IMG/VR virus record: IMGVR_UViG_2703718836_000007
Length of the DNA: 19,161 nucleotides
Strand: one strand, 5' to 3'
Origin: a virus
Taxonomy: Duplodnaviria > Heunggongvirae > Uroviricota > Caudoviricetes
Shown here: one piece after another, positions 2,397 through 14,891 of the stretch
Position numbering within the stretch: the stretch's first letter is position 1
Layout of the letters: each line of letters begins with the position of its first letter
Notes under the pieces: generated by a model
The model's input: the letters and a program-made list of their open reading frames with translations, nothing else
Told to the model about the DNA's origin: nothing
The model's database searches: none
Program-made: the position numbers and the translations under genes

Positions 2397-3518
2397 TTAG
2401 TCATCAACCGCGACTCCTGCACAATCATGGGCTATTGCCAGCAATTGTTTTTTAATTGCTTTAGCATCTACCGTCATATCTACTGTAGCAAAATGGATCT
2501 TATGTCCCTGAGTGACAACATACTCATTAAGCATATAGCCAACAGCTGGATGAAGTAGAAGACCAGCGGCATTGAGCGAAAGCGGATCCGTCTTGTTCTC
2601 CTGTGTTCTAAGGTAGGTATATAGCTGATAAATATAGCCATTACGTAGTGATTGCTCCCGATGCCAACCCTTTGTCAGAATCGAATTAAATTTGGTATCG
2701 ATAATAATACGCCGCTGGGCAGTCTTGTGTTCCAGAATAATGTCTGACTTCATTGTCGGGAAAATCTCTGCACTACCTGCACTTTGATCGCTCAACGCCC
2801 ATTTCAGCTCTTTCCCTGCAGAGACCTGCCAAGTTGTTTTGGCAAGGTGTACACGATATAAGCCAGCGATACCTTTTTCAAATAGTCTTCTCATCCAGTA
2901 AAGGTTATTTGAGGGCGCAGGTAAAAGATATTGGCCTTGATCTTCGGTCGGCATCAGCAGTTCAAAAGCTAATCGTGCGGCATCGACCATCGGTTTATCT
3001 GCGGCATCATGGCGTCCAAAACGCCACACTGAGGGTAATTCGCGGGGGGCAGGATATCCTCCATTTATCCCCTCACGGCGAAGTGATATTGCCATAAAAT
3101 GGCAATCTGCCGCCAAAGACGGTTTCACTATGATTGAGGCCAGACGTTCTAACGCACAGCGAACATAGCGATTTCGGGGGGTGTTGAGGGTTATGTCTTG
3201 AAAATGGCAGGCAACCTGTCCCCGTTCCAGCAGTTGATGACTGGCAGTATACAGTATGTCAATGCGCCCTCTCACCCGGTTCAGGGCCGCATGACAAGTT
3301 TGGTATCCCATATTTAAATTGCGACGTCGGCGCAGCGTAATCTCATGAAGGAGGATTGTCGCCACCAGGTCGGGGATTTCTGCTGGGTTATCTTCTACTG
3401 CGATCTGATTGCGCCCTAACTGGCGAAACAGATCTGAAGCGTACAGCATCAGCATCCAGATATTTCGCATGGGAATACGTGATGCTGTATGTTGCTCACT
3501 CCCGGTTATTGTCGTCAT
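2397..3518 (-). CDS. McrC-family nuclease subunit of a McrBC-type modification-dependent restriction system
   Basis: 373 aa. N-terminus IPMRNIWMLMLYA resembles E. coli McrC IPVRNIYYMLTYA. C-terminal PD-(D/E)xK-like core SDIIL...RRIIIDTKF...YIYQLYTYL...GLLLHPAVG. Its start overlaps the stop of the upstream McrB-like gene (translational coupling). Confidence 0.8.
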   Translation of the reverse strand: MTTITGSEQHTASRIPMRNIWMLMLYASDLFRQLGRNQIAVEDNPAEIPDLVATILLHEITLRRRRNLNMGYQTCHAALNRVRGRIDILYTASHQLLERGQVACHFQDITLNTPRNRYVRCALERLASIIVKPSLAADCHFMAISLRREGINGGYPAPRELPSVWRFGRHDAADKPMVDAARLAFELLMPTEDQGQYLLPAPSNNLYWMRRLFEKGIAGLYRVHLAKTTWQVSAGKELKWALSDQSAGSAEIFPTMKSDIILEHKTAQRRIIIDTKFNSILTKGWHREQSLRNGYIYQLYTYLRTQENKTDPLSLNAAGLLLHPAVGYMLNEYVVTQGHKIHFATVDMTVDAKAIKKQLLAIAHDCAGVAVDD

Positions 3519-5497
3519 TTTGCTAATAACACTTTTCTGGCTTCATCGACTTTATTTGGAGCATCGAACCAATATTCGGCGAGCAAAGGGCAGATCTCTG
3601 TATCAACGACTTGTTCATACCAAGCCTGGGCATCGTTGATTTTTTGGCCGATAGCTGGGGTGACATAGCTGTGACCGATACAAAACTGTGGTCCTAAGGT
3701 AACATCTTTTGCCAGCATATCGTTTAATACCGTCAGTCGAGATTTGATGAATGCTAACATGTCAAAATCAATTGCGTAATTATAATTTACCCAGTTTCTC
3801 CACGCGTCATTAAAAGCTGGCTTTAGATCGATAAACGCGAAACGACGGCGCAGCGCTAGGTCAAGTAGTGCGAGTGAGCGGTCTGCAATATTCATCGTAC
3901 CGATGATATATAGATTCTCAGGAATGTATATTTTTTCATCAGCATTTTTAGGATAGGAAAGAGATAATGCCTCAGTCGGCGTGCGTTTATCTGCTTCCAT
4001 CAACGTGAGTGTTTCACCGAAGATTTGCGCCGGATTGCCACGATTAATCTCTTCAATTATCACCACATATTTCGAGGTAGGATTATTGACTGCAGTTTTG
4101 ATTGCATTTACAAAAGGTCCATCAATTAGCGTCAATTGCCCTTCTTTACCTGGACGCCAGCCTCGAATAAAGTCTTCGTAAGAGAGGTTCGGGTGAAATT
4201 GCACCGCGCTAATACGCTCAGGTGCTTTTTCTCCCATCAAGCAGTACGCCAGACGTCGCGCTAACCAAGTTTTTCCAGTTCCGGGTGGTCCTTGTAATAT
4301 CAGGTTTTTCTTGTCGATCAGGCGCTGAAGTGTGAGTTGGATCTTAGCCTCTTCCAAGAAACAGCCATCCTGCACCAGATGACTGATGTCATAAGGAACG
4401 TGGGTGAGTTTTGGCAACAGCGCACTCTCTTCGACAGTTTCCTCAGTTATCGTCTGGGATTCGTTTTTCTCAAAATTCAGGTATTCATAATTTCCGGACT
4501 CGAGGGACTTTAACTCATCATCATTGCATAGTTTCTGTAGATAAAAGTAGATTGAGCTTGTAACAGTTTTGCTCTCAGGATGCTCTACCTTGAATACGTC
4601 CAAGTAGTTTTCTTCCAACTCCGAAGCAGTGAAATAAGGGCCATTTTTTTTCAGGCATAACGCCTTAATTTTATTCAGTAAAGAGGCTTTCCACGTTCTA
4701 TTTGCCACCTCATCTTTAGACTGGCTAAGATCTGTATTCCACGCTGATAAGGAAAGTTCTGGGAAAGAATGAACCGGATAGTTTGGTTGGGTAAAGACCT
4801 CGTTCAGCGCCCGCATAAGACTCAGGTAACTTTGTCCACTACAGCGACCTTTTGCCCCGTTTTTAATGATCTTAATGTTTAACACTGTCTGAATGTAATA
4901 CTGCGACTGGCTATCTAAAGTGGGGTAGAACCAAGGACGGGTCCAGTACAACCCCATGGTGAGATTCCAACCGACATTCATTACTGTAGAAGCGATGTCA
5001 TATGCGGCAGTGAAGTCTGCAGAGTTAGTATTCTGGTTATCCGCAAAGATCATTGCCTGTGAGAACATTTCCCACAAGCATTCAATGTCATTAGGGTCGC
5101 GTGACTTTTCATAACCAAAGAACCAAGATTTTTGGTTATTCAACAGAGGGATTCCGGCAAAGGAGTCAGGAATCGGTTCGTTCACGCCCAACAAATTCGC
5201 TAGCTTGGCAGCAATAATTTTGCGATTGCTGTCGGTCAAGTTACGATTGAACAAGCCCATAGTAGTAAACGGACAAATGTCTTTTAAGGGAAAGATCTCT
5301 CCCATAATAGATTTGTCCTGCAGATGGGACATTCCTTCCACACCCGAGGCAATTAGATGAATACCTTTGACTAATTCATCTCTACGATTTCGCCAAGTCA
5401 GTAACGCGTTGGCAAAAGCCTCATAAAAACTAGCCCAAGCAAACTTGCCATCATGTTCTGCTGTATCCACGGGAACTCCATTATACTTGTTGAGCAA
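3515..5497 (-). CDS. McrB-family AAA+ GTPase with a long (~390 aa) non-canonical N-terminal domain
   Basis: 660 aa. The C-terminal ~270 aa align with E. coli McrB: LILQGPPGTGKTWLARRLAYCLMGEKAP, VVIIEEINRGNPAQIFGETLTLME, YIPENLYIIGTMNIADRSLALLDLALRRRF, CIGHSY, PLLAEYWFD. The N-terminal 390 aa (W/Y-rich) do not resemble the ~160-aa McrB DNA-binding domain. Confidence 0.85.
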   Translation of the reverse strand: MLNKYNGVPVDTAEHDGKFAWASFYEAFANALLTWRNRRDELVKGIHLIASGVEGMSHLQDKSIMGEIFPLKDICPFTTMGLFNRNLTDSNRKIIAAKLANLLGVNEPIPDSFAGIPLLNNQKSWFFGYEKSRDPNDIECLWEMFSQAMIFADNQNTNSADFTAAYDIASTVMNVGWNLTMGLYWTRPWFYPTLDSQSQYYIQTVLNIKIIKNGAKGRCSGQSYLSLMRALNEVFTQPNYPVHSFPELSLSAWNTDLSQSKDEVANRTWKASLLNKIKALCLKKNGPYFTASELEENYLDVFKVEHPESKTVTSSIYFYLQKLCNDDELKSLESGNYEYLNFEKNESQTITEETVEESALLPKLTHVPYDISHLVQDGCFLEEAKIQLTLQRLIDKKNLILQGPPGTGKTWLARRLAYCLMGEKAPERISAVQFHPNLSYEDFIRGWRPGKEGQLTLIDGPFVNAIKTAVNNPTSKYVVIIEEINRGNPAQIFGETLTLMEADKRTPTEALSLSYPKNADEKIYIPENLYIIGTMNIADRSLALLDLALRRRFAFIDLKPAFNDAWRNWVNYNYAIDFDMLAFIKSRLTVLNDMLAKDVTLGPQFCIGHSYVTPAIGQKINDAQAWYEQVVDTEICPLLAEYWFDAPNKVDEARKVLLAK

Positions 5498-5830: not shown

Positions 5831-6415
5831 TTATTCCATAACAGGGATTGCAGGCCACTCAATATCAGGTGCAGTTGATGTATCAACACGATTCAGCAAC
5901 ACCCGATACTTCTTCCAGGCTTCAAGCAACGAGGTTTCTTCCTCCGTTGCGATTTCCAGATCTGCAGCATCCTGAAGCGGGGCAATATGCTCACTGGCTA
6001 CCTGCATCAGGCTGTTTTTTGTTTCTTCCGCCTCCCGGATCCGGAACAGTTTTTCTGCTTCCGTATCCTTCACCCAGGCTGTGCCGTTCCACTTCTGAAA
6101 CTCCCCTTCCGGGGATAACCAGGTGATATTTTCCGGTAGAGGTCCGAGTTCAGAAATAAATAACGAGTCGCCGGAAGCCACGTCATAGACGGTTTTTCCC
6201 CGATGATCTTCAACGAGATGCCACGATGCCTCATCACTGTTGAAAACAGCCACGAAGCCTACCGGAATATCTGGCGGTGCAATATAGGTACTGTTTGCTG
6301 GCAGACCTGTATGAGGCGGAATATATGCGTCACCTTCACCAATAAATTCATTAGTTCCGGCCAGCAGATTATAAATTTTTATGGTCCGTGGTTGTTCACT
6401 CATTCTGAATGCCAT
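5831..6415 (-). CDS. tfa: Tail fiber assembly protein Tfa (lambda Tfa-like)
   Basis: 194 aa, [31 protein letters not shown]...[11 protein letters not shown], near-identical to lambda Tfa as I recall it. Start overlaps the stf stop. Confidence 0.9.
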
Positions 6416-9267
6416 TATGCAAGCCTCACAATGTAGTTAAATGCGATGTTTTTGACGGTGTTTTCCGCGTTACCAGCAGCGTTAACGGTGATGGTGTGTC
6501 CATGTGAGCCAATCGCAACGGAGTGCGTATGAGCACCAATACCGACAGTATGTGCATGTGCGCCTGCGCTTGCAGCAGTGCCGGACAGCGAGTGGGTATG
6601 AGCACCATCTGATGATGTCTTCCCTGCATTACGAGTCTGGCCACTACCGCTTGTTGTGCTCATAATCCCCGCGCTTAGATTTGAAATCGCGGTATAACCA
6701 TTAGGGAAAATGCTCGTGTTCGTGCCACCAAATGCACCGGAACTCTTGTGTTGGTGCGCACCGGCACTATTTGCGGTCCCGCTAATACTATGGGTATGCG
6801 CCCCGGTGTTATTCGTGGATTTGGTTCCGTAATCAAACGACGATGTGGTTTTCGTCCCCAAATCCGTACTGGATGCGCTGGCGCTGTGGGTGTGCGATTT
6901 AATGCCGTCCTGTTCCTGAGACAATACGGCCCGACCACTGGCAGGTTTGCCCTTAATCGTCCAGCCACGCATATCAGGGATCACGCCTGACGGATAAGCG
7001 GCTGCAAGTTTCGGGTAAGCAGATTTGTCAAAAGTCTGCCCCTGCATCAGGGCATAACCAGACGGAACGGTATCTGATGGCCACGGGATTGGTGCGCCGA
7101 CTGGGTAGCTTTCTGGTGGAAGATTTTTCGAGGTATAAACTTCTGCCCAGCCTTCCTCAAAACCATAACCGTCTCTTGAAGAACGGTAGAACAGACCACC
7201 ATTTCTGTAATGCGCCTTCATCTGCAGGGTCCGGCAACTTCCGACTCCGGTATAGAAGTTAACCAGAATATAGCTGTCGCCAGAGCGGGTGACATTGTAA
7301 GCGCCTGATTCGGCATTCCAGGGAACGCCACCATCCGCATCGGCATATGTATCCGTTGCCCTTCTGGCAAAAGCAGCCACATGCGCGGCGGTTAAAGTAA
7401 TATCTTTGGAACCATCAAATGGAACACCGGATATTTTTCTTGCAGTCTGGAGTTTTGTAGCAGTTGCAGCATTACCAGTGGTGTTCTGATTACCCGTAGT
7501 GTTTACACCTGGAAGGTTAATATTTGCAGAACCGTCGAAAACAACTCCACCGATAGATCTTGCCGTCTGCAATTTCGTGGCTGTACTTGCATTACCATTC
7601 AATGAACCAGTTAATCCACCTGTAACAGACAACGGACCTGAAACTGTTCCTCCGGTTGTTGGCAGTGCTCCAATATCTGATGGTGTAGGTTTCTGATGTG
7701 AGCTATACATCGTATAAACAACACCATAGGTAACGCTGGAAGGCTTACTCGCTGAATATGTTGGCGAGGTATAAACAGAAACTGACGCATTTGCAGTACA
7801 ATCCCAATGGATATTTACACTCGTCGCATAATTGCCAATCTCAACGTAAATATCATATGTATCGCCGGATGTGTTGATCCAGGCGAAATTCGTTAATCCG
7901 ACGGCTGTACGCTTCCACAAAGCCCCGGTAATTCCTTTGGGGTTTCCATTGCCTGCTCGTAGAACCAGTTCTGAAATGCCTGCCTGATGTGGGGAACCGA
8001 CGTTGTAACCAGCGCCACCAATCAATGCGATGTAAACGATGGAACTCGCTTGTGGCATGGTAACCGTAGCCAGTTTGAACCACCCAGCCCCGCCAGAGAA
8101 AGACATCGTTACTGAATTTAAAGTACCAATATCTTTCGGCGTTAATGTTATATCCGCAGTCAGTGCTTTTCCGTTAACTTTTCGGTTAGATGGCACCCTG
8201 CTATTCGCATTGTCATTGGCTGCTTTAACTGCTTTTGGCGTTGCGGCCAGCGATTCACTGGTGCTATCAACAGCACTGCTAAGTTTCACAACACCTTTAG
8301 TTGTAAGGCTTGCGTCTTCCATCGCAACTGCACCGGCAATCTCTTCAGCACGATCAGCAGCAGCTTCCGCACGGGTCGCAGCGGATTCAGCAGTAGTTTT
8401 GCTCTGAGATGCCGCCGTCGCACTGCCAGCTGCCTCTGTCGCCTTCGTGGATGCTGTCGTGGCGCTGCCTTTCGCTGCTGATGCCTGTCTGCTCGCCTCA
8501 TCTTTTGAAGCAGACGCAGATGATGCCGATGACGCCGCCGAACTGGCGGACGATGCAGCTGCCATTTTTGAGGATTCTGCACTGGTTTCCGAGGCTTTCG
8601 CGTTCGTTTCGGATGTCTTCGCTGCGGATGCAGACCTCGCTGCTGCGCTGGCCTGTTCAGCGGCTTCGCCAGCCTTCGTTGTGGCTGTTGAAGCAGACGA
8701 TGCGGCGCTTTCTGCCGATTTTCCGGCGGCGGTGGCACTGGCTGAGGCCTGCCCGGCACTTGTTGACGCGGCACTGGCAGACGACGCAGCCGCTGTTTTT
8801 GAGCCTGCCGCAGCCGAGGCGCTCTGTCCCGCTGCCGTTTCAGAAGACCTGGCGTTTGTCTCAGACGTCTTTGCCGCCTTCGCGGAATTGCCTGCCGCCG
8901 TTGCCGAGGAAGCGGCACTACTGGCGCTTGATGATGCGTTCGTTTCTGATGATTTCGCTGCCTCTTTTGAGGCCGCCGCATCCCGGGCTGAGGTGGCTGC
9001 TTCTGACGCCTTCGTGGTCGCGGCGGATGCAGAAGTGGCTGCTGATTGTTGTGACGCTGCCGCATTCGTTTCTGACGTTTTCGCCGCACCGGCACTGGTA
9101 GCTGCCGCGCTTTTTGAGGACTCTGCAGCAGCAGCACTTTTTGCTGCTTCACGGGCCTTTGTCGATGCCGTTCCTGCGCTGGAAGACGCTGACTGAGCCG
9201 ACGACGCGGCCTGTCCGGCTGACGTGCTGGCGGCACGTGCTGAGCCTGCAGCATCGGTTATTACCAC
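6415..9267 (-). CDS. stf: Side tail fiber protein Stf (lambda/Rac-like), N-terminally truncated at a deletion junction; probably non-functional
   Basis: C-terminus [31 protein letters not shown] and the HxH-rich region match lambda Stf. Long Ala/Ser/Thr-rich reiterated segment (KTSETNA units). The ORF opens with GTG at the junction; the canonical Stf N-terminal ~140 aa are missing. Confidence 0.75.
8370..9265. repeat. Reiterated low-complexity coding repeats (Ala/Ser/Thr-rich, recurring KTSETNA units) inside stf
   Basis: Direct reading of the stf translation. This segment generates three long spurious shadow ORFs in other frames. Confidence 0.7.
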
Positions 9268-10117
9268 TTCCCGGATCGCTATACGCTATTCCGTTAAAGA
9301 TAATGGGCGGAATAATGATTTGACGGTCAAAGTTATGATCATCGCTGATGGTGACTGTAACCGTCCCGTTTGGTGTTTCCGTATTACCCCACGTACCAGC
9401 CTGTTTCGGGAATGATTTGGATACAGCTTTAACGAAGTCACCTCTGACCTGAGTCGCCTCCAGCATGCCCTTAATCGTACAGTTTTCATTTACCGTGACA
9501 TTGTTGAGCGTCCCGGCGTTCGCATTCACACTGCCACTGATATCCGCATTTTTAGCGGTCAGCTTTCCGTCCGGTGTCAGGGAAAATGCCGGTGGATTTC
9601 CACCGCTGGTAATGGTGGGGGCCGTCAGGCGTTTCAGGAACACGTCGTTCATGAATATCTGATCGCCCTGACCAACAAACATCGGTTTTGTGTTGCCATT
9701 CGCAGGATTAACCATCGCAATCCTGTCCGCCGCCAGCAGCACCTGACTCTGCATGCCGTCAGGGGTGTTCTCAATATCCACGATGGCCTCTTTTTCCGGT
9801 ACATGCTGCACGGCGGTGATGGCATACGTGCCGTCGTCGTTCTCACGGATACTCACGCAGCGGAACAGGCGCTGGCGCAACGTCGGCAGCTTCAGCCCCC
9901 ATACGCTGTATTCAGCAACGCCGTCAGGAACACGGCTCACTTTCACCTTCACGCCGTCGGTGACGGACTGAACCTCCACGCTGACCGGACTCCCCTGCCC
10001 GTCAACCAGGCTTATCAGCGTGGTGCCGGAAGATGGCAGCGTGATTTCACGGTCGAGCGTCAGCGTCCGGGTCTGGCTGTTTACCGCCAGCACGCGCCCG
10101 CCGGTGCGGATACCCAA
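9149..10117 (-). pseudogene. Fragment of the lambda J-like tail tip host specificity protein
   Basis: Translation [25 protein letters not shown]...[15 protein letters not shown]...[43 protein letters not shown]...DDHNFDRQI matches internal and C-terminal J segments. J is over 1100 aa and only about 270 aa are present. The frame then runs out of register across the stf 5' end. Confidence 0.8.
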
Positions 10118-10335
10118 GCTGGAGTGGCGAACGTTTTACCCTTGCTGATGAGGTATTCACTGATTTCGCTGTACCACATGTGGCTGAGTGCATTCTGGGA
10201 AAGACTGCGTCTCTCGCGCCACGGTTTAAGCACCATGCGAAAGCATTTGCCGTCCTCCAGATAAGGCTGGATCTGCCGACCGATAGCGGTGAAGTTACCG
10301 CGATGCAATTTGATACCATCTTGTGGGAGGTTCAC
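10081..10335 (-). pseudogene. NinB/YbcN-family protein, N-terminal fragment fused by deletion to the J fragment
   Basis: 84-aa ORF with RSLSQNALSHMWYSEIS, resembling the NinB RSLDQN motif and YbcN-like N-termini. Homology ends at about 10095, where J homology begins. Confidence 0.55.
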
Positions 10336-10529
10336 GCTTCACCTCCGCAGAGATCAAACGCTGGATGCAAAATATCGCAGGTGCATTTCTGCATCTGTGA
10401 ATGGAGAAGAGAGGTTGGATTGTATGTGCGCATAAACGTCCCCGTTTAGCGCAGAAGTCACCGGAGTTGTTCAGGCCCCAATGGCATGATTATGGCTGGT
10501 TGATTATTGGAAATCAAATGTGCTGAAAA

Positions 10530-11039
10530 TTAGTCTGCCAAGTCTTCCTCAGTCGCAACTGGGTAATTCCAAATATCAAAAAAAGCTATAGCCTCCTGCC
10601 ATTTGCTCCATAAGTTATCAAGTACTTGTGTAGGTTCCGTACTTTTAAAAACAGAATCAGCCGCATCACCGTTATGAACTTCCTCGTACAGTTCCATTAT
10701 TAGCAGATTAACAAAGTACTGTTTCAACATTAATGCCTGATTACCTTCTTTCTGCTGGCTATCCTGCTTGATGATCTCCATCGCCCGTACTAGGCACCTG
10801 ATGATATCCGCTGCATCATTAACGCTCCATTCAGATCCGCGCTTATCTTTAGCTGATGAATTGGCTCTCTCAGCGCAAGCCTTTAAAGACTCATAAAGGT
10901 AAACTCTATTTTGTAGCTGCAGCGCTTTTTTTGACGTGTACCAACTTGCAAGCGCCGACCCCGCTGCGGCTAATGTGCCAAACGCAGAAATACCTGCTGC
11001 TATTGCACTTAAGTCGGCACTGTCAAAGTTCCACATCAT
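10530..11039 (-). CDS. Uncharacterised protein with a single predicted N-terminal transmembrane anchor
   Basis: 169 aa. Hydrophobic segment LSAIAAGISAFGTLAAAGSALASWY at residues ~10-34, followed by an acidic soluble domain. SD-like aaggtg upstream and an AT-rich promoter-like region at 11040-11297. No homolog recognised. Confidence 0.55.
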   Translation of the reverse strand: MMWNFDSADLSAIAAGISAFGTLAAAGSALASWYTSKKALQLQNRVYLYESLKACAERANSSAKDKRGSEWSVNDAADIIRCLVRAMEIIKQDSQQKEGNQALMLKQYFVNLLIMELYEEVHNGDAADSVFKSTEPTQVLDNLWSKWQEAIAFFDIWNYPVATEEDLAD

Positions 11040-11297
11040 CGTTACACCTTATATAAATACCCCTCAGTAATATCCAATAAGGTATGTGCACAATCAATAT
11101 AATTTTATCCGTATCGGCACATAGCGATTTGAACGCTACTGGTAATGGTATATTTTAGATTATATCGTCCAGTTTACAGCACCCGTATTTTATGAAATGG
11201 ACTCGCATATTACCCAAAAAATGCCAGCACTTCCGTCATCGTAGAATGCTGGCAGTATTTCTAACTAGTGACTTTATTGGAACAGATTCTGACGGAA

Positions 11298-11597
11298 TTA
11301 TGGTAACACTCGACTCCACTTATCATCCAGCCACGGCTGGAATTTTACATGTGCCGTTTCTCTGGCGAGGATTGCTCGCGCTCTGTTGAGTATCTGGGGA
11401 TATTCTTGCTCGATAGAAGTAAAGCGGCCGGCTTCGCGGTGCTCCGCAACCTGAAGTAGTGGAGTAACGTTCTGGCAGGCAGTTAACATCACATCACCTG
11501 CTCGCCATAACCAAGCACGTGCACAAAGTTTGTTATCAGTGAATTGTTTTGTGATTGGGTATTGTTGAACTGCTAGAACGAGAACGCCAGCATCCAT
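11298..11597 (-). CDS. Hypothetical protein, 99 aa
   Basis: ORF with a moderate RBS. Sits where DLP12-type prophages carry ybcL/ybcM. No recognisable motif; could be a gene fragment. Confidence 0.35.
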   Translation of the reverse strand: MDAGVLVLAVQQYPITKQFTDNKLCARAWLWRAGDVMLTACQNVTPLLQVAEHREAGRFTSIEQEYPQILNRARAILARETAHVKFQPWLDDKWSRVLP

Positions 11598-11708
11598 TGG
11601 CAGTCCCTATAGTAAAACCATAGCTCAGGACGCTTCGTTCAGGATAGATAATTTTATTGTACTTACCTAACTTTCTTACTATAGCACGGTTGAAAAAGTG
11701 ATTATTAC

Positions 11709-13235
11709 TCAAAAATAAACCTCACCATCAACCATATATTTGAGAGTACTTATCGCCTGCTGGGCGGATATTGTTTTCATTAAAGGATAGTGTTTAAAAA
11801 CAATGCCATTCATAAAATAGATATCACAGGTTTTATTATCTGTATTGATTATGATTTTTTCGAATGTTTTATAGGCAAGTGTACGACATAGCTCTCGCCC
11901 ATTTTTACTGGTTAAGTCAATAGCATGAAAATCACCAAGTGAACTCACCGCTTTACTCTTCAAAGTTTTTAATGATACAGAAGCCCTTCGTAATTCCTTA
12001 TCTAATACTCTGATTTTTTCTGCTATAGCGGTAACTTCAGGCGCAACAGATAATGCAGCAATTAAATTATTAATTTTCATCTGGAGCTCAATAATTTTCA
12101 ACTCTAAAGTTTCATTAGCATCTTTCTTGTTTTCAACTGGTTGGATTTTACTACAATTAAAAAGCAACTCATTAATGATATTATAATCAACCAAATCTCT
12201 CTTTATTGATGGCCTGTCACATCGATGCAGTCTTCTCATCGGACAAACATAATAGCCATGCAAACTTCCAGATACCGCATGAACAATCATGGTATTACCA
12301 CAAGCCTCGCACTTCATAACTGTTCGAAGTAGATTTATCAACATAGGATTTTTGCTACTATTGCTAATACCAAAAGGTGCCAACCGAATTTCCTGCACAG
12401 CGTAAAACAAATCATCTGATATGACTCTGGGATAATAGCCAGCGATTTCACTTATTCCTTTACCTCTTGCACGATATGAAGGTACGCATATACCTATCAG
12501 AGCTTTATTCGCTAATAATTTTTCAATTACAGAAGGTCCCCATGCACTTTCTTTTCCTGAGAAATTCTTTACAGCATGATCATTTAAATACTTGGCTATT
12601 GCATTCAATGAGCGCCTTTCCATCCTGAGTTTAAAAATTAGCTCAATAGTTTTCACCCTGTCGGGGTCTGGAACAAAAGCCGTTCTTTTGTCATCCAATG
12701 AGAGCCATCTCGGACAAGACGCCGTCATAATCGTGCCTGACTCCAGTGCATCCTGCCGTTTTTTCTTCCATGATAATTTAACCCGACTTGACTTTATCTC
12801 GCTTTCTTCATTTGCCCTTTGTGCTATAAGTATGGCTTTTATTAATGAATATGGCTCATTCAATGAGTCAATATTATAGACTGTATTATCGCAAAGAGTT
12901 ATAACATCAATACCGTGATTCAAAATCAATTTCAGACGCTCAATCGCCTCACCGACTTTTTCTCTTGAAAGTCTGTCCAGACTTTCAACTAACAATGTAG
13001 TCCCTGGCAATATATAACCATGTTCTATAGCATCTAAAAATTCCGAAAAAGCTCCTGATTGTGCATGCTTTCCATTGAATGCGCTTAACCCCAAATCTTC
13101 ATACGTTACGGTATCAAGGTAATAATCACTATTTACCTTTAGCCATTCAGTAATAAGCCTTCTCTGGCGGTTTAATGAATCACCAGACATCTGACTTGGT
13201 GATGAAAATCGCATATATGCTATGGCTTTTTTCAT
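11709..13235 (-). CDS. ybcK: Large serine recombinase (YbcK-like, resolvase/invertase N-terminal catalytic domain)
   Basis: 508 aa. N-terminal AIAYMRFSSPSQ serine-recombinase catalytic motif. Low GC. Downstream of emrE, as in the DLP12 emrE-ybcK arrangement I recall. Confidence 0.75.
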   Translation of the reverse strand: MKKAIAYMRFSSPSQMSGDSLNRQRRLITEWLKVNSDYYLDTVTYEDLGLSAFNGKHAQSGAFSEFLDAIEHGYILPGTTLLVESLDRLSREKVGEAIERLKLILNHGIDVITLCDNTVYNIDSLNEPYSLIKAILIAQRANEESEIKSSRVKLSWKKKRQDALESGTIMTASCPRWLSLDDKRTAFVPDPDRVKTIELIFKLRMERRSLNAIAKYLNDHAVKNFSGKESAWGPSVIEKLLANKALIGICVPSYRARGKGISEIAGYYPRVISDDLFYAVQEIRLAPFGISNSSKNPMLINLLRTVMKCEACGNTMIVHAVSGSLHGYYVCPMRRLHRCDRPSIKRDLVDYNIINELLFNCSKIQPVENKKDANETLELKIIELQMKINNLIAALSVAPEVTAIAEKIRVLDKELRRASVSLKTLKSKAVSSLGDFHAIDLTSKNGRELCRTLAYKTFEKIIINTDNKTCDIYFMNGIVFKHYPLMKTISAQQAISTLKYMVDGEVYF

Positions 13236-14193: not shown

Positions 14194-14891
14194 ACCCTTG
14201 CTCCTTTCAGCCCAAACTTAGCTTTGATTTCTGCGATCTTCGCCAGAGCCTGTGCACGATTTAGAGGTCTACCGCCCATGACAGGAAGTTGTTTTACTGG
14301 TTCAGGTATAGCCTCACCACGGTTAATTCGTGCGGTCATACAGGACAGTTCATCGGCAGCCTTGCGCCGTAATTCCGCGTCAGTCAACGCATTGGCCCGC
14401 ATGTTCTGATACAGGTTGGTAACCAGCCAGTAGTGCGCGTTTGATTTCCACGGATAAGACTCTGCATCCGGATACAGCCCGCGCTTCCGGCAATACTCGT
14501 AAACCATATCAACCAGCTCGCTGGCGTTTGGCAGCCCGGCGGTAACGGATGCTTCTTCCCGGCACCAGGCGACAAACTGCCCGGGTGATGGCAGGAATGG
14601 TCGATTCTGCCGACGGGCTACGCGCATTCCAGCGTTAACCTGTTCCATTGTGGTGATCCCGTTTTCCCGAAAAGCCAGCACCCACTGGCGGCGGATTTCG
14701 TTCAGTTCATTCTGGTCACGGTTAGCCAGGCTCGCCGGGAAAGTTGCCAGTAACTGGCTGAACACACCGTTGATGATCTGCGCTACCTGCTGTACCTGTG
14801 GCTTTTCGTCGTACTGTTCCGGCATGTTGTTGGCGATCCGACGCATCTGCTCACGGTCAAAGTTAACCATCTGTGCGGCGATGTTTTTCAT
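14190..14891 (-). CDS. P: Replication protein P (DnaB helicase loader), full length
   Basis: 233 aa, MKNIAAQMVNFDREQMRRIANNMPEQYDEKPQVQQVAQIINGVFSQLLATFPASLANRDQNE..., near-identical to lambda P. Confidence 0.9.
   Translation of the reverse strand: MKNIAAQMVNFDREQMRRIANNMPEQYDEKPQVQQVAQIINGVFSQLLATFPASLANRDQNELNEIRRQWVLAFRENGITTMEQVNAGMRVARRQNRPFLPSPGQFVAWCREEASVTAGLPNASELVDMVYEYCRKRGLYPDAESYPWKSNAHYWLVTNLYQNMRANALTDAELRRKAADELSCMTARINRGEAIPEPVKQLPVMGGRPLNRAQALAKIAEIKAKFGLKGARV

Follow-up and report, generated by a model that had tools for sequence, protein, structure and literature searches.

The window analysed here is the whole 19,161-nt stretch of the Caudoviricetes record IMGVR_UViG_2703718836_000007. 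Between ybcK and a truncated ninB it carries two ORFs on the minus strand, of 169 and 99 aa, and an earlier sequence-only reading had placed both of them correctly. The features of the locus are listed below, and we are highly confident of this anatomy.

10111-10335, minus strand: ninB/ybcN remnant (residues 2-75 of 151), fused to tail-tip fragments
10332-10433, minus strand: ylcH-like small ORF
10111..10433, minus strand: downstream flank as a whole (ylcH-like ORF and ninB/ybcN remnant)
10522..11301, minus strand: exchangeable p169 cassette (terminator, promoter and CDS), as delimited by phage Turner
10530..11039, minus strand: 169-aa ORF ("p169"), an intact gene (RefSeq WP_000990013.1, PHROG 1779)
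11045..11050, minus strand: Shine-Dalgarno sequence AAGGTG, read directly from the sequence, 5 nt before the first p169 ATG
11057..11085, minus strand: inverted repeat around the -10 element, with arms ATACCTT (11079-11085) and GGGGTAT (11057-11063)
11069..11097, minus strand: predicted sigma-70-type promoter, with -35 TTGATT (11092-11097), a 17-nt spacer and -10 GATATT (11069-11074)
11216..11254, minus strand: intrinsic terminator (10-bp G+C-rich stem and U6) between the rha' stop and the p169 promoter
11298..11597, minus strand: 99-aa ORF (rha'), remnant of a Bro-N + P22AR_C ("Rha") gene (PF10548, E 9e-13)
11598..11708, minus strand: 3' flank of ybcK and its junction with rha'
11709..13235, minus strand: upstream flank ybcK, a large serine recombinase (Resolvase + Recombinase + Zn ribbon)

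The exact protein sequences of both ORFs are found on at least 1000 public contigs, and thus neither arose by chance. The usual ybcL/ybcM cargo has indeed been replaced, as had been proposed: homology to the K-12 prophage DLP12 stops at window position 11670 and restarts at 10518, and window 10519-11669 substitutes for the ybcL-ybcM block (L007 4471-6283), which accounts for 1.8 kb of DLP12. The junction between ybcK and rha' is common to phages Turner (100%) and 4A7-like (86%). Rfam gave no match anywhere in the p169/rha' region, and in the literature neither ORF turned up in any paper under its accession, PHROG number, gene names or hotspot terms.

The 99-aa ORF had been described as devoid of recognisable features, but this description does not hold. 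It matches Pfam PF10548 (P22AR_C) over profile positions 3-73 of 73 (48.6 bits against a cut-off of 22.4) and PHROGs 245 and 377 ("anti-repressor Ant"), and its RefSeq annotation is likewise antirepressor. Its full-length relatives, in phages PhiR26_1 and PhiR5_1, are "Rha" proteins of 202-249 aa composed of Bro-N and P22AR_C (PF02498 + PF10548). With these the 99-aa ORF shares the complete P22AR_C domain, but it has neither Bro-N nor the last 8 residues. It aligns solely with the C-terminal half of the 202- and 249-aa relatives (83-88% identical), the alignment leaves out about 100-146 N-terminal residues, and a TAT to TAA change ends the frame 8 codons before the native C-terminus. Bro-N is present in the L002 and L003 proteins, but was not found in the 99- or 107-aa ORFs. 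The first 12 or so codons of rha' are highly diverged where the gene meets the ybcK flank. In strain 55989, a sister lineage, rha' has a different nonsense mutation and is marked "internal stop"; one of these two independent mutations is present in 13 of 18 ybcK-linked loci, and a nonsense mutation in p169 is present in none of the 18. In phage 4A7 only the first 170 nt or so of the rha' remnant are left. What is left in the 99-aa ORF is a decaying remnant, dead or dying, of an antirepressor-like gene of the Bro-N + P22AR_C type. This is the very outcome that the sequence-only reading had named as counting against its proposal, namely a piece of a larger gene that has been disrupted. The DNA-binding half of the rha gene was lost when an old rearrangement brought ybcK upstream, and the allele of the window acquired its premature stop afterwards.

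The sequence-only reading had implicitly treated the two ORFs as one co-transcribed cargo module whose products work jointly. Such a module would fit the finding that in every E. coli copy p169, the intergenic region and the sequence coding for P22AR_C are contiguous, and also the position of the Rha-p169 block of PhiR26_1 between 104-bp direct repeats. However, a strong intrinsic terminator separates the 99-aa ORF from p169, and the former is truncated, with nonsense mutations that are lineage-specific. Each gene also occurs alone, since phage Turner has rha' without p169 and other genera have p169 homologues without a Rha gene, and between arrangements the divergence is 13% in rha' but 0.2-0.6% in p169. 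A joint module is therefore highly improbable and already largely refuted; the 99-aa and 169-aa ORFs are two unrelated things, not a pair.

p169 is a real gene. Comparison with diverged homologues gives a dN/dS of 0.09-0.31. The loci that were retrieved, from annotated records of E. coli and phages and from IMG/VR contigs, contain 46 near-identical copies with that of the window itself included, and every one is intact. Because copies from cryptic prophages and from active phages are only 0-8 nt apart, this intactness may be due to recent exchange and not to selection in the host. Among 5,426 complete E. coli genomes 181 (about 3%) carry the gene, O104:H4 and 55989 being two of these, and so do just 2 of 50,697 GenBank phage records. 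Its product matches the phrog_1779 profile from end to end (E 1.2e-102, residues 1-169 on profile positions 1-169 of 169), and the same profile is matched by 28/28 family members scanned. p169 is thus a full member of PHROG 1779, a small family of enterobacterial temperate phages that carries no annotation, and an intact gene of that family. An exhaustive HMMER search of 1.8 billion proteins yielded 35 representatives, none of them annotated. For the locus search a broad p169 alignment had no block that was conserved enough, and a narrower alignment succeeded.

The statement that neither ORF could be assigned to a known family fails for the 99-aa ORF, which has P22AR_C, but stands for the 169-aa product, whose sole significant profile match is the function-unknown PHROG 1779. 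Neither Pfam nor NCBIfam contains a match to p169, PADLOC gave none, and the 28 family members run against Pfam returned scattered noise at most. Beyond phrog_1779, the PHROGs gave one non-significant match (E 0.29) to another family of unknown function. The family profile found nothing below E 6.8 among PDB sequences, and PHROG 1779 lacks a model in Pfam or NCBIfam as well as any solved or similar structure. Described Sie, Abi and defence families, as represented in PADLOC, PHROG and Pfam, include no match to p169.

The Shine-Dalgarno sequence and AT-rich promoter-like region attributed to the 169-aa ORF are both present, the former as AAGGTG and the latter as an element conserved in divergent homologues. 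A GAGG or AGG motif lies at the matching position in the homologues. Since PhiR5_1 and STEC388 read ATA ATG at the start, translation may begin at the second ATG (11036) instead. The promoter element, with an A+T-rich tract upstream of it, matches 8/12 consensus positions and for this reason escaped the consensus scan. Nevertheless, TTG and GATATTA are invariant in 7 p169 loci whose proteins are just 50-84% identical and whose upstream genes differ; the promoter core is 50-86% identical, as against 35-56% at third codon positions, and the TTGnnn-N17-GATATT element was found upstream of p169 homologues only. Conservation of this kind suggests that the promoter is active. In relatives the inverted repeat around the -10 element extends up to a perfect 10-bp form, AATACCCTGA-N12-TCAGGGTATT, and 79% of its cells are paired, compared with 34-52% in slid controls, while the hairpin test gave no significant covariation. 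It is a candidate operator, or else a hairpin in read-through RNA, and the two roles are indistinguishable because pairing is conserved without covariation. The terminator upstream (dG -20.3 kcal/mol, z -3.2) is kept in PhiR26_1 and PhiR5_1; the pattern scan missed it because its loop exceeds 8 nt. Between the p169 stop and ylcH/ninB the pattern scan found no convincing terminator. Terminator, conserved promoter, Shine-Dalgarno sequence and CDS make p169 a self-contained cassette, with the promoter's activity judged from its conservation.

Several alternative cargos occur at this lambdoid hotspot, which lies directly upstream of ylcH/ninB, and the p169 cassette is one of them. The site is a cargo (moron) slot of the DLP12-type prophage, as had been supposed; it is filled differently in K-12, Turner and 4A7, all three of which share its right edge (10518-10521). 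Phage Turner has both ybcK-rha' and ylcH-ninB (homologous to window 13300-11302 and 10521-10111), with a different 847-bp insert encoding a 118-aa ORF between them; direct comparison rejected a relationship of this cargo to p169. In phage 4A7 the slot holds an esterase. The ybcL-ybcM cargo of K-12 DLP12 shares with p169 the slot upstream of ylcH-ybcN and its right boundary (window 10518), but its genes, for periplasmic YbcL (by RefSeq name) and the putative DNA-binding transcriptional regulator YbcM, are unrelated. Together with emrE, ybcL/ybcM show that non-defence cargo also occupies the hotspot. In PhiR26_1 and about a dozen IMG/VR contigs, the defence gene for SNIPE (PD-lambda-1) lies upstream of Rha-p169 in the same ren-ninB interval. 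The neighbours of p169 differ between genera, and the promoter-like element moves with the gene. A conserved partner gene was considered and rejected, as neighbours vary from genus to genus.

In all contexts examined p169 is co-oriented with phage early operons, sometimes among early-left accessory genes and near theta/HOT homologues. This arrangement would fit an early lytic function just as well as a defensive one. p169 might thus be an early-expressed accessory protein serving the phage's own lytic or lysogenic development, possibly in host take-over, inhibition of cell division or replication, counter-defence, or control of a membrane protease. In that case its transcription would come mostly from the early operon, through antiterminated read-through, and the protein would have no role in this cryptic prophage. 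The gene follows replication genes or, in L067, lies within an ERF/SSB early region beside int, and it adjoins or overlaps theta/HOT homologues in three distant contexts. In lambdoid phages the "nin" region is under N/Q antitermination, and terminator-like hairpins before p169 would fit this logic; the cytoplasmic domain also shares its acidity with some anti-restriction proteins. We nonetheless regard an early accessory role as rather unlikely, given the conserved promoter-like element that accompanies p169, its intactness beside decaying neighbours and its optional, more moron-like occurrence, since most lambdoid phages do without it (2/50,697 records).

A single N-terminal transmembrane helix and an acidic C-terminal domain had been read from the 169-aa product, and both descriptions agree with its composition: there is one hydrophobic segment, at residues 11-33 or so and conserved in position (as judged by hydrophobicity), and the C-terminal half has a pI of 4.05. 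The best 19-residue Kyte-Doolittle mean is 1.59, in a family range of 1.5-2.5. Membrane insertion is not certain, because the E. coli segment is the weakest of the family by this measure and has a crude Hessa sum of +2.7 kcal/mol. In nearly all members the segment has an acidic N flank and a basic C flank. Upstream of it, a 288-aa homologue carries three additional putative transmembrane segments (read by eye from its sequence), which would give the p169 segment the same out-to-in orientation. From hydrophobicity, flank charges and this homologue, p169 is predicted, with reasonable probability, to be an N-out/C-in single-pass membrane protein. Its AF2 model is all-alpha (pLDDT 84.8) and gave no informative fold match. 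The C-terminus (...TEEDLAD) belongs to an acidic D-x-D-L-x-D tail that is conserved in the family and in which we recognise no known host-binding motif. No catalytic-type residues are conserved in the family; this, the all-alpha model and the lack of domain matches lead us to infer that p169 is non-enzymatic.

In the predicted helix, 17 of 22 residues (77%) at positions 11-32 are G/A/S/T. Small residues are at least 96% conserved at positions 18, 21, 22, 24-26, 28, 29 and 32 (S32 is invariant), and a lone ridge of bulky residues is formed by positions 20, 23, 27 and 30. Such an Ala/Gly/Ser-rich segment could act as a SAR/pinholin-type helix or form an oligomeric pore, which would make p169 a membrane-damaging or lysis-related protein: a toxin, an abortive-infection effector or a modulator of lysis timing, with the cytoplasmic domain as sensor. 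The best PDB sequence match, at the non-significant E of 6.8, is a designed transmembrane coiled-coil peptide. By contrast, no holin, antiholin or toxin profile matches p169, which lies upstream of ninB or among early genes and never in a lysis cassette; the holin and lysozyme genes are located elsewhere. In addition, the predicted orientation is opposite to that of SAR endolysins, a basic N-terminus is missing, and there is no conserved antitoxin-like partner gene. Membrane damage is accordingly an improbable function.

The best explanation overall, which we favour tentatively and at rather less than even odds, is that of a rha' remnant beside a p169 cassette with a role in exclusion; for p169 itself an exclusion or defence role is possible though doubtful. 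p169 would be made in the lysogen from its own promoter and would insert in the inner membrane, leaving some 10 residues outside. The conserved helix of small residues (Ala/Ser/Gly; residues 11-33 or so) might pack against its own copies or against a host membrane protein. The cytoplasmic domain would be an all-alpha, non-enzymatic unit of about 135 residues, and the acidic tail a protein-binding peptide. Positioned at the cytoplasmic face of the membrane, the protein might act through superinfection exclusion or abortive infection against competing phages or phages coming in, a possibility that the sequence-only reading had raised too, and would do so by binding or sequestering a partner, without catalysis.

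T4 Imm, P22 SieA/SieB, HK97 gp15 and lambda RexB are small inner-membrane superinfection-exclusion or Abi proteins of phages. The likeness of p169 to them is that of a small prophage-borne, predicted membrane protein on an optional, apparently self-promoted cassette, but PHROGs, Pfam and PADLOC reveal no similarity to any of these proteins at profile level. None of them is known to us to have a large, conserved, helical domain in the cytoplasm that ends in an acidic tail.

SNIPE, which occupies the same ren-ninB cargo region and lies 1.7 kb from p169 in PhiR26_1, is a membrane-bound nuclease, cleaving phage DNA as it is injected (bioRxiv 10.1101/2025.11.03.685801; Vassallo et al. 2022, PMC9519451). 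It has been found by experiment to be an N-out, TM-anchored defence protein that faces the cytoplasm (bioRxiv 10.1101/2025.11.03.685801). An N-terminal TM anchor with cytoplasmic domains is thus experimental for SNIPE, whereas the same topology is a prediction for p169. Unlike SNIPE, p169 has neither DUF4041 nor a GIY-YIG nuclease, is one third the size and has no conserved catalytic motif; a relationship between the two was rejected (BLASTP against PhiR26_1 SNIPE, E 4.1). More speculatively, and with low probability, PHROG 1779 might constitute an unrecognised exclusion family of the lambdoid ren-ninB hotspot that is single-gene, non-enzymatic and membrane-anchored. Its small-residue TM helix would dock on a host inner-membrane protein or self-assemble, and its cytoplasmic helical domain, with the invariant acidic tail, would either bind part of an incoming phage or cause the membrane to fail, by a mechanism distinct from those of SNIPE, Sie, Rex and the other systems known.

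The present result is mostly clarifying, in that one ORF is a pseudogene remnant and the other a conserved "known unknown" with well-defined limits. Should p169 prove to exclude phages, the known defences would gain a tiny membrane-anchored family that works without catalysis. The site upstream of ylcH/ninB, where SNIPE is already found, would then be a lambdoid hotspot of defence cargo comparable to those of P2 and P4.

The window, 100% identical to E. coli strain ML35 over the region, is a cryptic E. coli prophage of mosaic make-up. On its minus strand the genes run in the order ren, emrE, ylcJ, ybcK, a 99-aa ORF (rha'), a 169-aa ORF (p169; WP_000990013.1), a ylcH-like ORF and a ninB/ybcN remnant, of which the following concern us here.

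11709-13235, minus strand, ybcK
11298-11597, minus strand, 99-aa ORF (rha'), a P22AR_C remnant
10530-11039, minus strand, 169-aa ORF (p169)
minus strand, ninB/ybcN, broken off after residue 75, where tail-tip fragments follow

Homology to the K-12 prophage DLP12 ends 39 nt beyond ybcK, at 11670, and restarts at 10518; thus, the K-12 ybcL-ybcM block has been replaced by window positions 10519-11669. Gene order and the DLP12 comparison bear out the sequence-only reading, in which two ORFs stand in place of ybcL/ybcM between ybcK and the ninB remnant. Near 10111 an abrupt fusion joins ninB residue 75 to tail-tip (J-like) fragments, and the late region from mid-ninB to J has therefore been deleted. 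In the ML35 annotation a second abrupt fusion, at about 14785-14795, links a fragment of replication protein P to an e14-like element's YmfQ/baseplate block. A full-length match to Rfam IS009 (RF02111, 214 bits) lies at 5874-6072 (minus strand) within the annotated tail fibre assembly gene. In other frames, several long ORFs run across the Ala/Ser-rich repeats of the tail fibre gene (6415-9267, minus strand), to which a 245-aa “hypothetical protein” (RefSeq; about 8459-9196, plus strand) is antisense; all are probably artefacts of repetitive, GC-rich sequence. Adjoining the tail fibre end of the prophage (about 2546-5470) are an McrB-family gene and mcrC, with an IS3 element and a truncated ORF between them (ML35 annotation).

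The 99-aa ORF had been described as having no recognisable features; it matches Pfam P22AR_C (PF10548, E 9e-13) as well as antirepressor PHROGs. In PhiR26_1 and PhiR5_1, lambdoid phages that can be induced, this DNA forms the 3' half of a gene annotated “Rha” (202 or 249 aa), which at full length encodes Bro-N and P22AR_C. Alignment of the window ORF covers only the C-terminal half of Rha, so that the larger disrupted gene whose discovery was to count against the sequence-only reading does exist. A TAT to TAA change stops the window copy 8 codons before the end of the 107-aa form of other strains, the 55989 lineage has a different, internal nonsense mutation (“internal stop”), and in phage 4A7 the first ~170 nt remain and the rest is gone. 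Given the loss of Bro-N, the early stops, and the partial survival in 4A7, the ORF is a decaying gene fragment; compared with the Bro-N/P22AR_C “Rha” family it is a known kind of gene, but broken, without Bro-N or an intact frame. The junction between ybcK and rha' is shared with phage Turner (100% identical) and 4A7-like phages (86%), and is old. One or other of the two nonsense mutations occurs in rha' at 13 of 18 ybcK-linked loci, and the adjacent p169 has no nonsense mutation at any of the 18. That the two ORFs form a single two-gene module is essentially refuted.

Phage Turner contains both ybcK-rha' and ylcH-ninB, with a different insert of 847 bp between them, and in K-12 the cargo of the same slot is ybcL/ybcM. 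Turner, 4A7 and K-12 all rejoin the window at 10518-10521, 9-12 nt past the p169 stop codon. This common rejoining point, together with the Turner insert, sets the bounds of the p169 cassette.

10522-11301, p169 cassette (terminator, promoter and CDS)
3920-4766 of L073 (phage Turner), alternative cargo, an uncharacterised 118-aa ORF
3789-5169 of L074 (phage 4A7), alternative cargo of 4A7-like phages, an esterase gene on the reverse strand

The Turner 118-aa protein was ruled out as a relative of p169 (hhalign probability 0.3). In PhiR26_1 and many IMG/VR contigs, the membrane-bound defence nuclease SNIPE (PD-lambda-1), a validated defence gene (bioRxiv 10.1101/2025.11.03.685801; PMC9519451), is found on the opposite strand upstream of Rha. 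Because alternative cargos, SNIPE among them, fill one site, the site is a cargo hotspot where one or more validated defence genes occur, as do cargos of other kinds. On either side of the Rha-p169 block of PhiR26_1 lie direct repeats of ylcH-upstream sequence, 104 bp long and 89% identical (4653-4756 and 6587-6690 of its locus, L002; 10356-10453 in the window), which suggests that the block entered or moves by recombination there. Within this hotspot p169 is a discrete, exchangeable cassette.

Public contigs encoding the exact p169 protein number at least 1000, and of 5,426 complete E. coli genomes 181 have it, O104:H4 and 55989 among them; p169 occurs in just 2 of 50,697 GenBank phage records. 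Its family is small (at 90% identity it forms 15 clusters, and at 50% its representatives among 1.84 billion proteins number 35), the named records are enterobacterial (Escherichia, Scandinavium, Enterobacter and Phytobacter), and the fetched contexts look temperate-phage-like. PHROG 1779 (function unknown) takes in all 28 of the 28 members tested, and p169 is a bona fide member of it, a “known unknown”. No sequence or fold relative was found in Pfam, NCBIfam, PADLOC, PDB sequences or a fold search. Against diverged homologues dN/dS is 0.09-0.31, and p169 is a real, intact gene under purifying selection. Between E. coli arrangements p169 differs at 1-8 of 510 nt (<2%; 0.2-0.6% against the commonest arrangement with full-length Rha), far below the 13% of the adjoining rha' segment and the 4-5% of the intergenic regions. 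This points to recent cassette exchange, which limits what the intactness of p169 alone can prove.

Upstream of p169 lie the following elements.

11254-11216, minus strand, intrinsic terminator, a 10-bp G+C-rich hairpin followed by U6 (dG -20.3 kcal/mol, z -3.2), starting 44 nt past the rha' stop codon
11097-11069, minus strand, promoter-like element TTGATT-N17-GATATT, ~120 nt beyond the terminator
11057-11085, minus strand, inverted repeat around the -10 hexamer (also 1235-1262 of L053, 5957-5983 of L008 and 3955-3982 of L057, loci of relatives)
11050-11045, minus strand, Shine-Dalgarno sequence AAGGTG, then the p169 ATG

The promoter-like element matches the sigma-70 consensus at 8 of 12 positions and was not called by a consensus scan, so its function is argued from conservation. 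Seven loci that encode proteins 50-84% identical to p169 behind unrelated upstream genes share TTG, the 17-nt spacing and TGGATATTA with essentially no variation; every pair is 50-86% identical over the 50-nt core, versus 35-56% at CDS third codon positions. The element was seen nowhere else in these loci or the window. This cis-element travels with the gene, and p169 may be transcribed from its own predicted promoter in the lysogen. In relatives the inverted repeat, known only upstream of p169 homologues, reads AATACCCTGA-N12-TCAGGGTATT and is in some perfect over 10 bp; it is 79% paired, versus 34-52% in slid controls, with no significant covariation. A candidate operator and a hairpin in read-through RNA are equally possible. 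In the distant loci L063, L064 and L065 a CCCC/GGGG hairpin resembling it directly follows a TATAAT.

The sole hydrophobic segment of p169 (residues ~11-33) is conserved in position family-wide, with a best 19-residue Kyte-Doolittle mean of 1.5-2.5, the window allele (1.59) being the weakest. In nearly all members the N-terminal flank is acidic and devoid of Lys/Arg and the next 15 residues are basic; by the positive-inside rule p169 is predicted to insert in the inner membrane N-out/C-in. A 288-aa family member (P0042; 5001-5867 of L069) has ~135 extra N-terminal residues with, on our reading, three predicted transmembrane segments before the conserved helix, which would give that helix the same orientation. 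Gly, Ala, Ser and Thr account for 77% of the helix, conservation of small residues reaches 96% or more at positions 18, 21, 22, 24-26, 28, 29 and 32 (S32 being the single invariant residue of the family), and bulky residues occupy one ridge only (20, 23, 27 and 30). Since this conservation exceeds the needs of a passive anchor, it suggests that the small-residue face may mediate helix-helix packing. In an AlphaFold model (28-sequence alignment, pLDDT 84.8) the membrane segment continues, within a single 57-residue helix (7-63), into a bundle that this helix forms with four others. The C-terminal half is acidic (pI 4.05) and most members finish in T/S-D/E-x-D-L-x-D. No conserved catalytic-type residues were seen in the family alignment; the conserved polar positions are Q43, E50, R58 and N60. 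The cytoplasmic part is thus best read as a non-enzymatic binding domain with an acidic C-terminal peptide. Set against the families described for Sie, Abi, defence, holin and SNIPE proteins, p169 has no profile match, none of the SNIPE nuclease domains and no place in a lysis cassette. The likeness goes no further than size, predicted membrane anchoring and moron-like packaging, apart from the Gly/Ala/Ser/Thr-rich helix that p169 has in common with SAR-type lysis proteins. A role as pore, SAR-like protein or toxin is improbable.

In every fetched context p169 homologues have the orientation of a temperate element's early genes, and they usually lie directly upstream of ninB or DUF1367 and past the replication genes; other settings are an ERF/SSB early-type region near int, and an element with an Ogr/Delta-type regulator and integrase. 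That p169 in these contexts always points the same way as the early operons, in surroundings rich in terminators, favours the main rival explanation, an early accessory function serving the phage itself, which we consider possible if doubtful. The upstream neighbour varies, being Rha in E. coli only and elsewhere DUF551, Dam methylase, theta/HOT homologues or hypothetical genes. Across the family, the fetched contexts show no conserved partner gene, so p169 acts by itself or together with proteins of the host or phage that are encoded elsewhere. Next to distant homologues lie DNA polymerase III theta (HOT-like) genes (5567-5824 of L064/L065, 4756-5004 of L066, 4028-4270 of L067), and that of L066 shares 4 nt with the homologue's start, an overlap suggestive of translational coupling.

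Based on the anatomy and expression argued for p169, and with SNIPE as precedent, we tentatively propose a prophage-expressed phage-exclusion or abortive-infection factor. Made in the lysogen from its own predicted promoter and inserted N-out/C-in, p169 would pack helix against helix through its small-residue face, bind a partner through the non-enzymatic domain and acidic peptide, and exclude phage or abort infection at the cytoplasmic face of the membrane. SNIPE occupies the same hotspot, and the topology predicted for p169 has been established experimentally for SNIPE (bioRxiv 10.1101/2025.11.03.685801); the proteins themselves have no homology. We rate p169 as optional membrane-protein cargo of lambdoid prophages, in a well-delimited cassette that is carried by notable pathogens.
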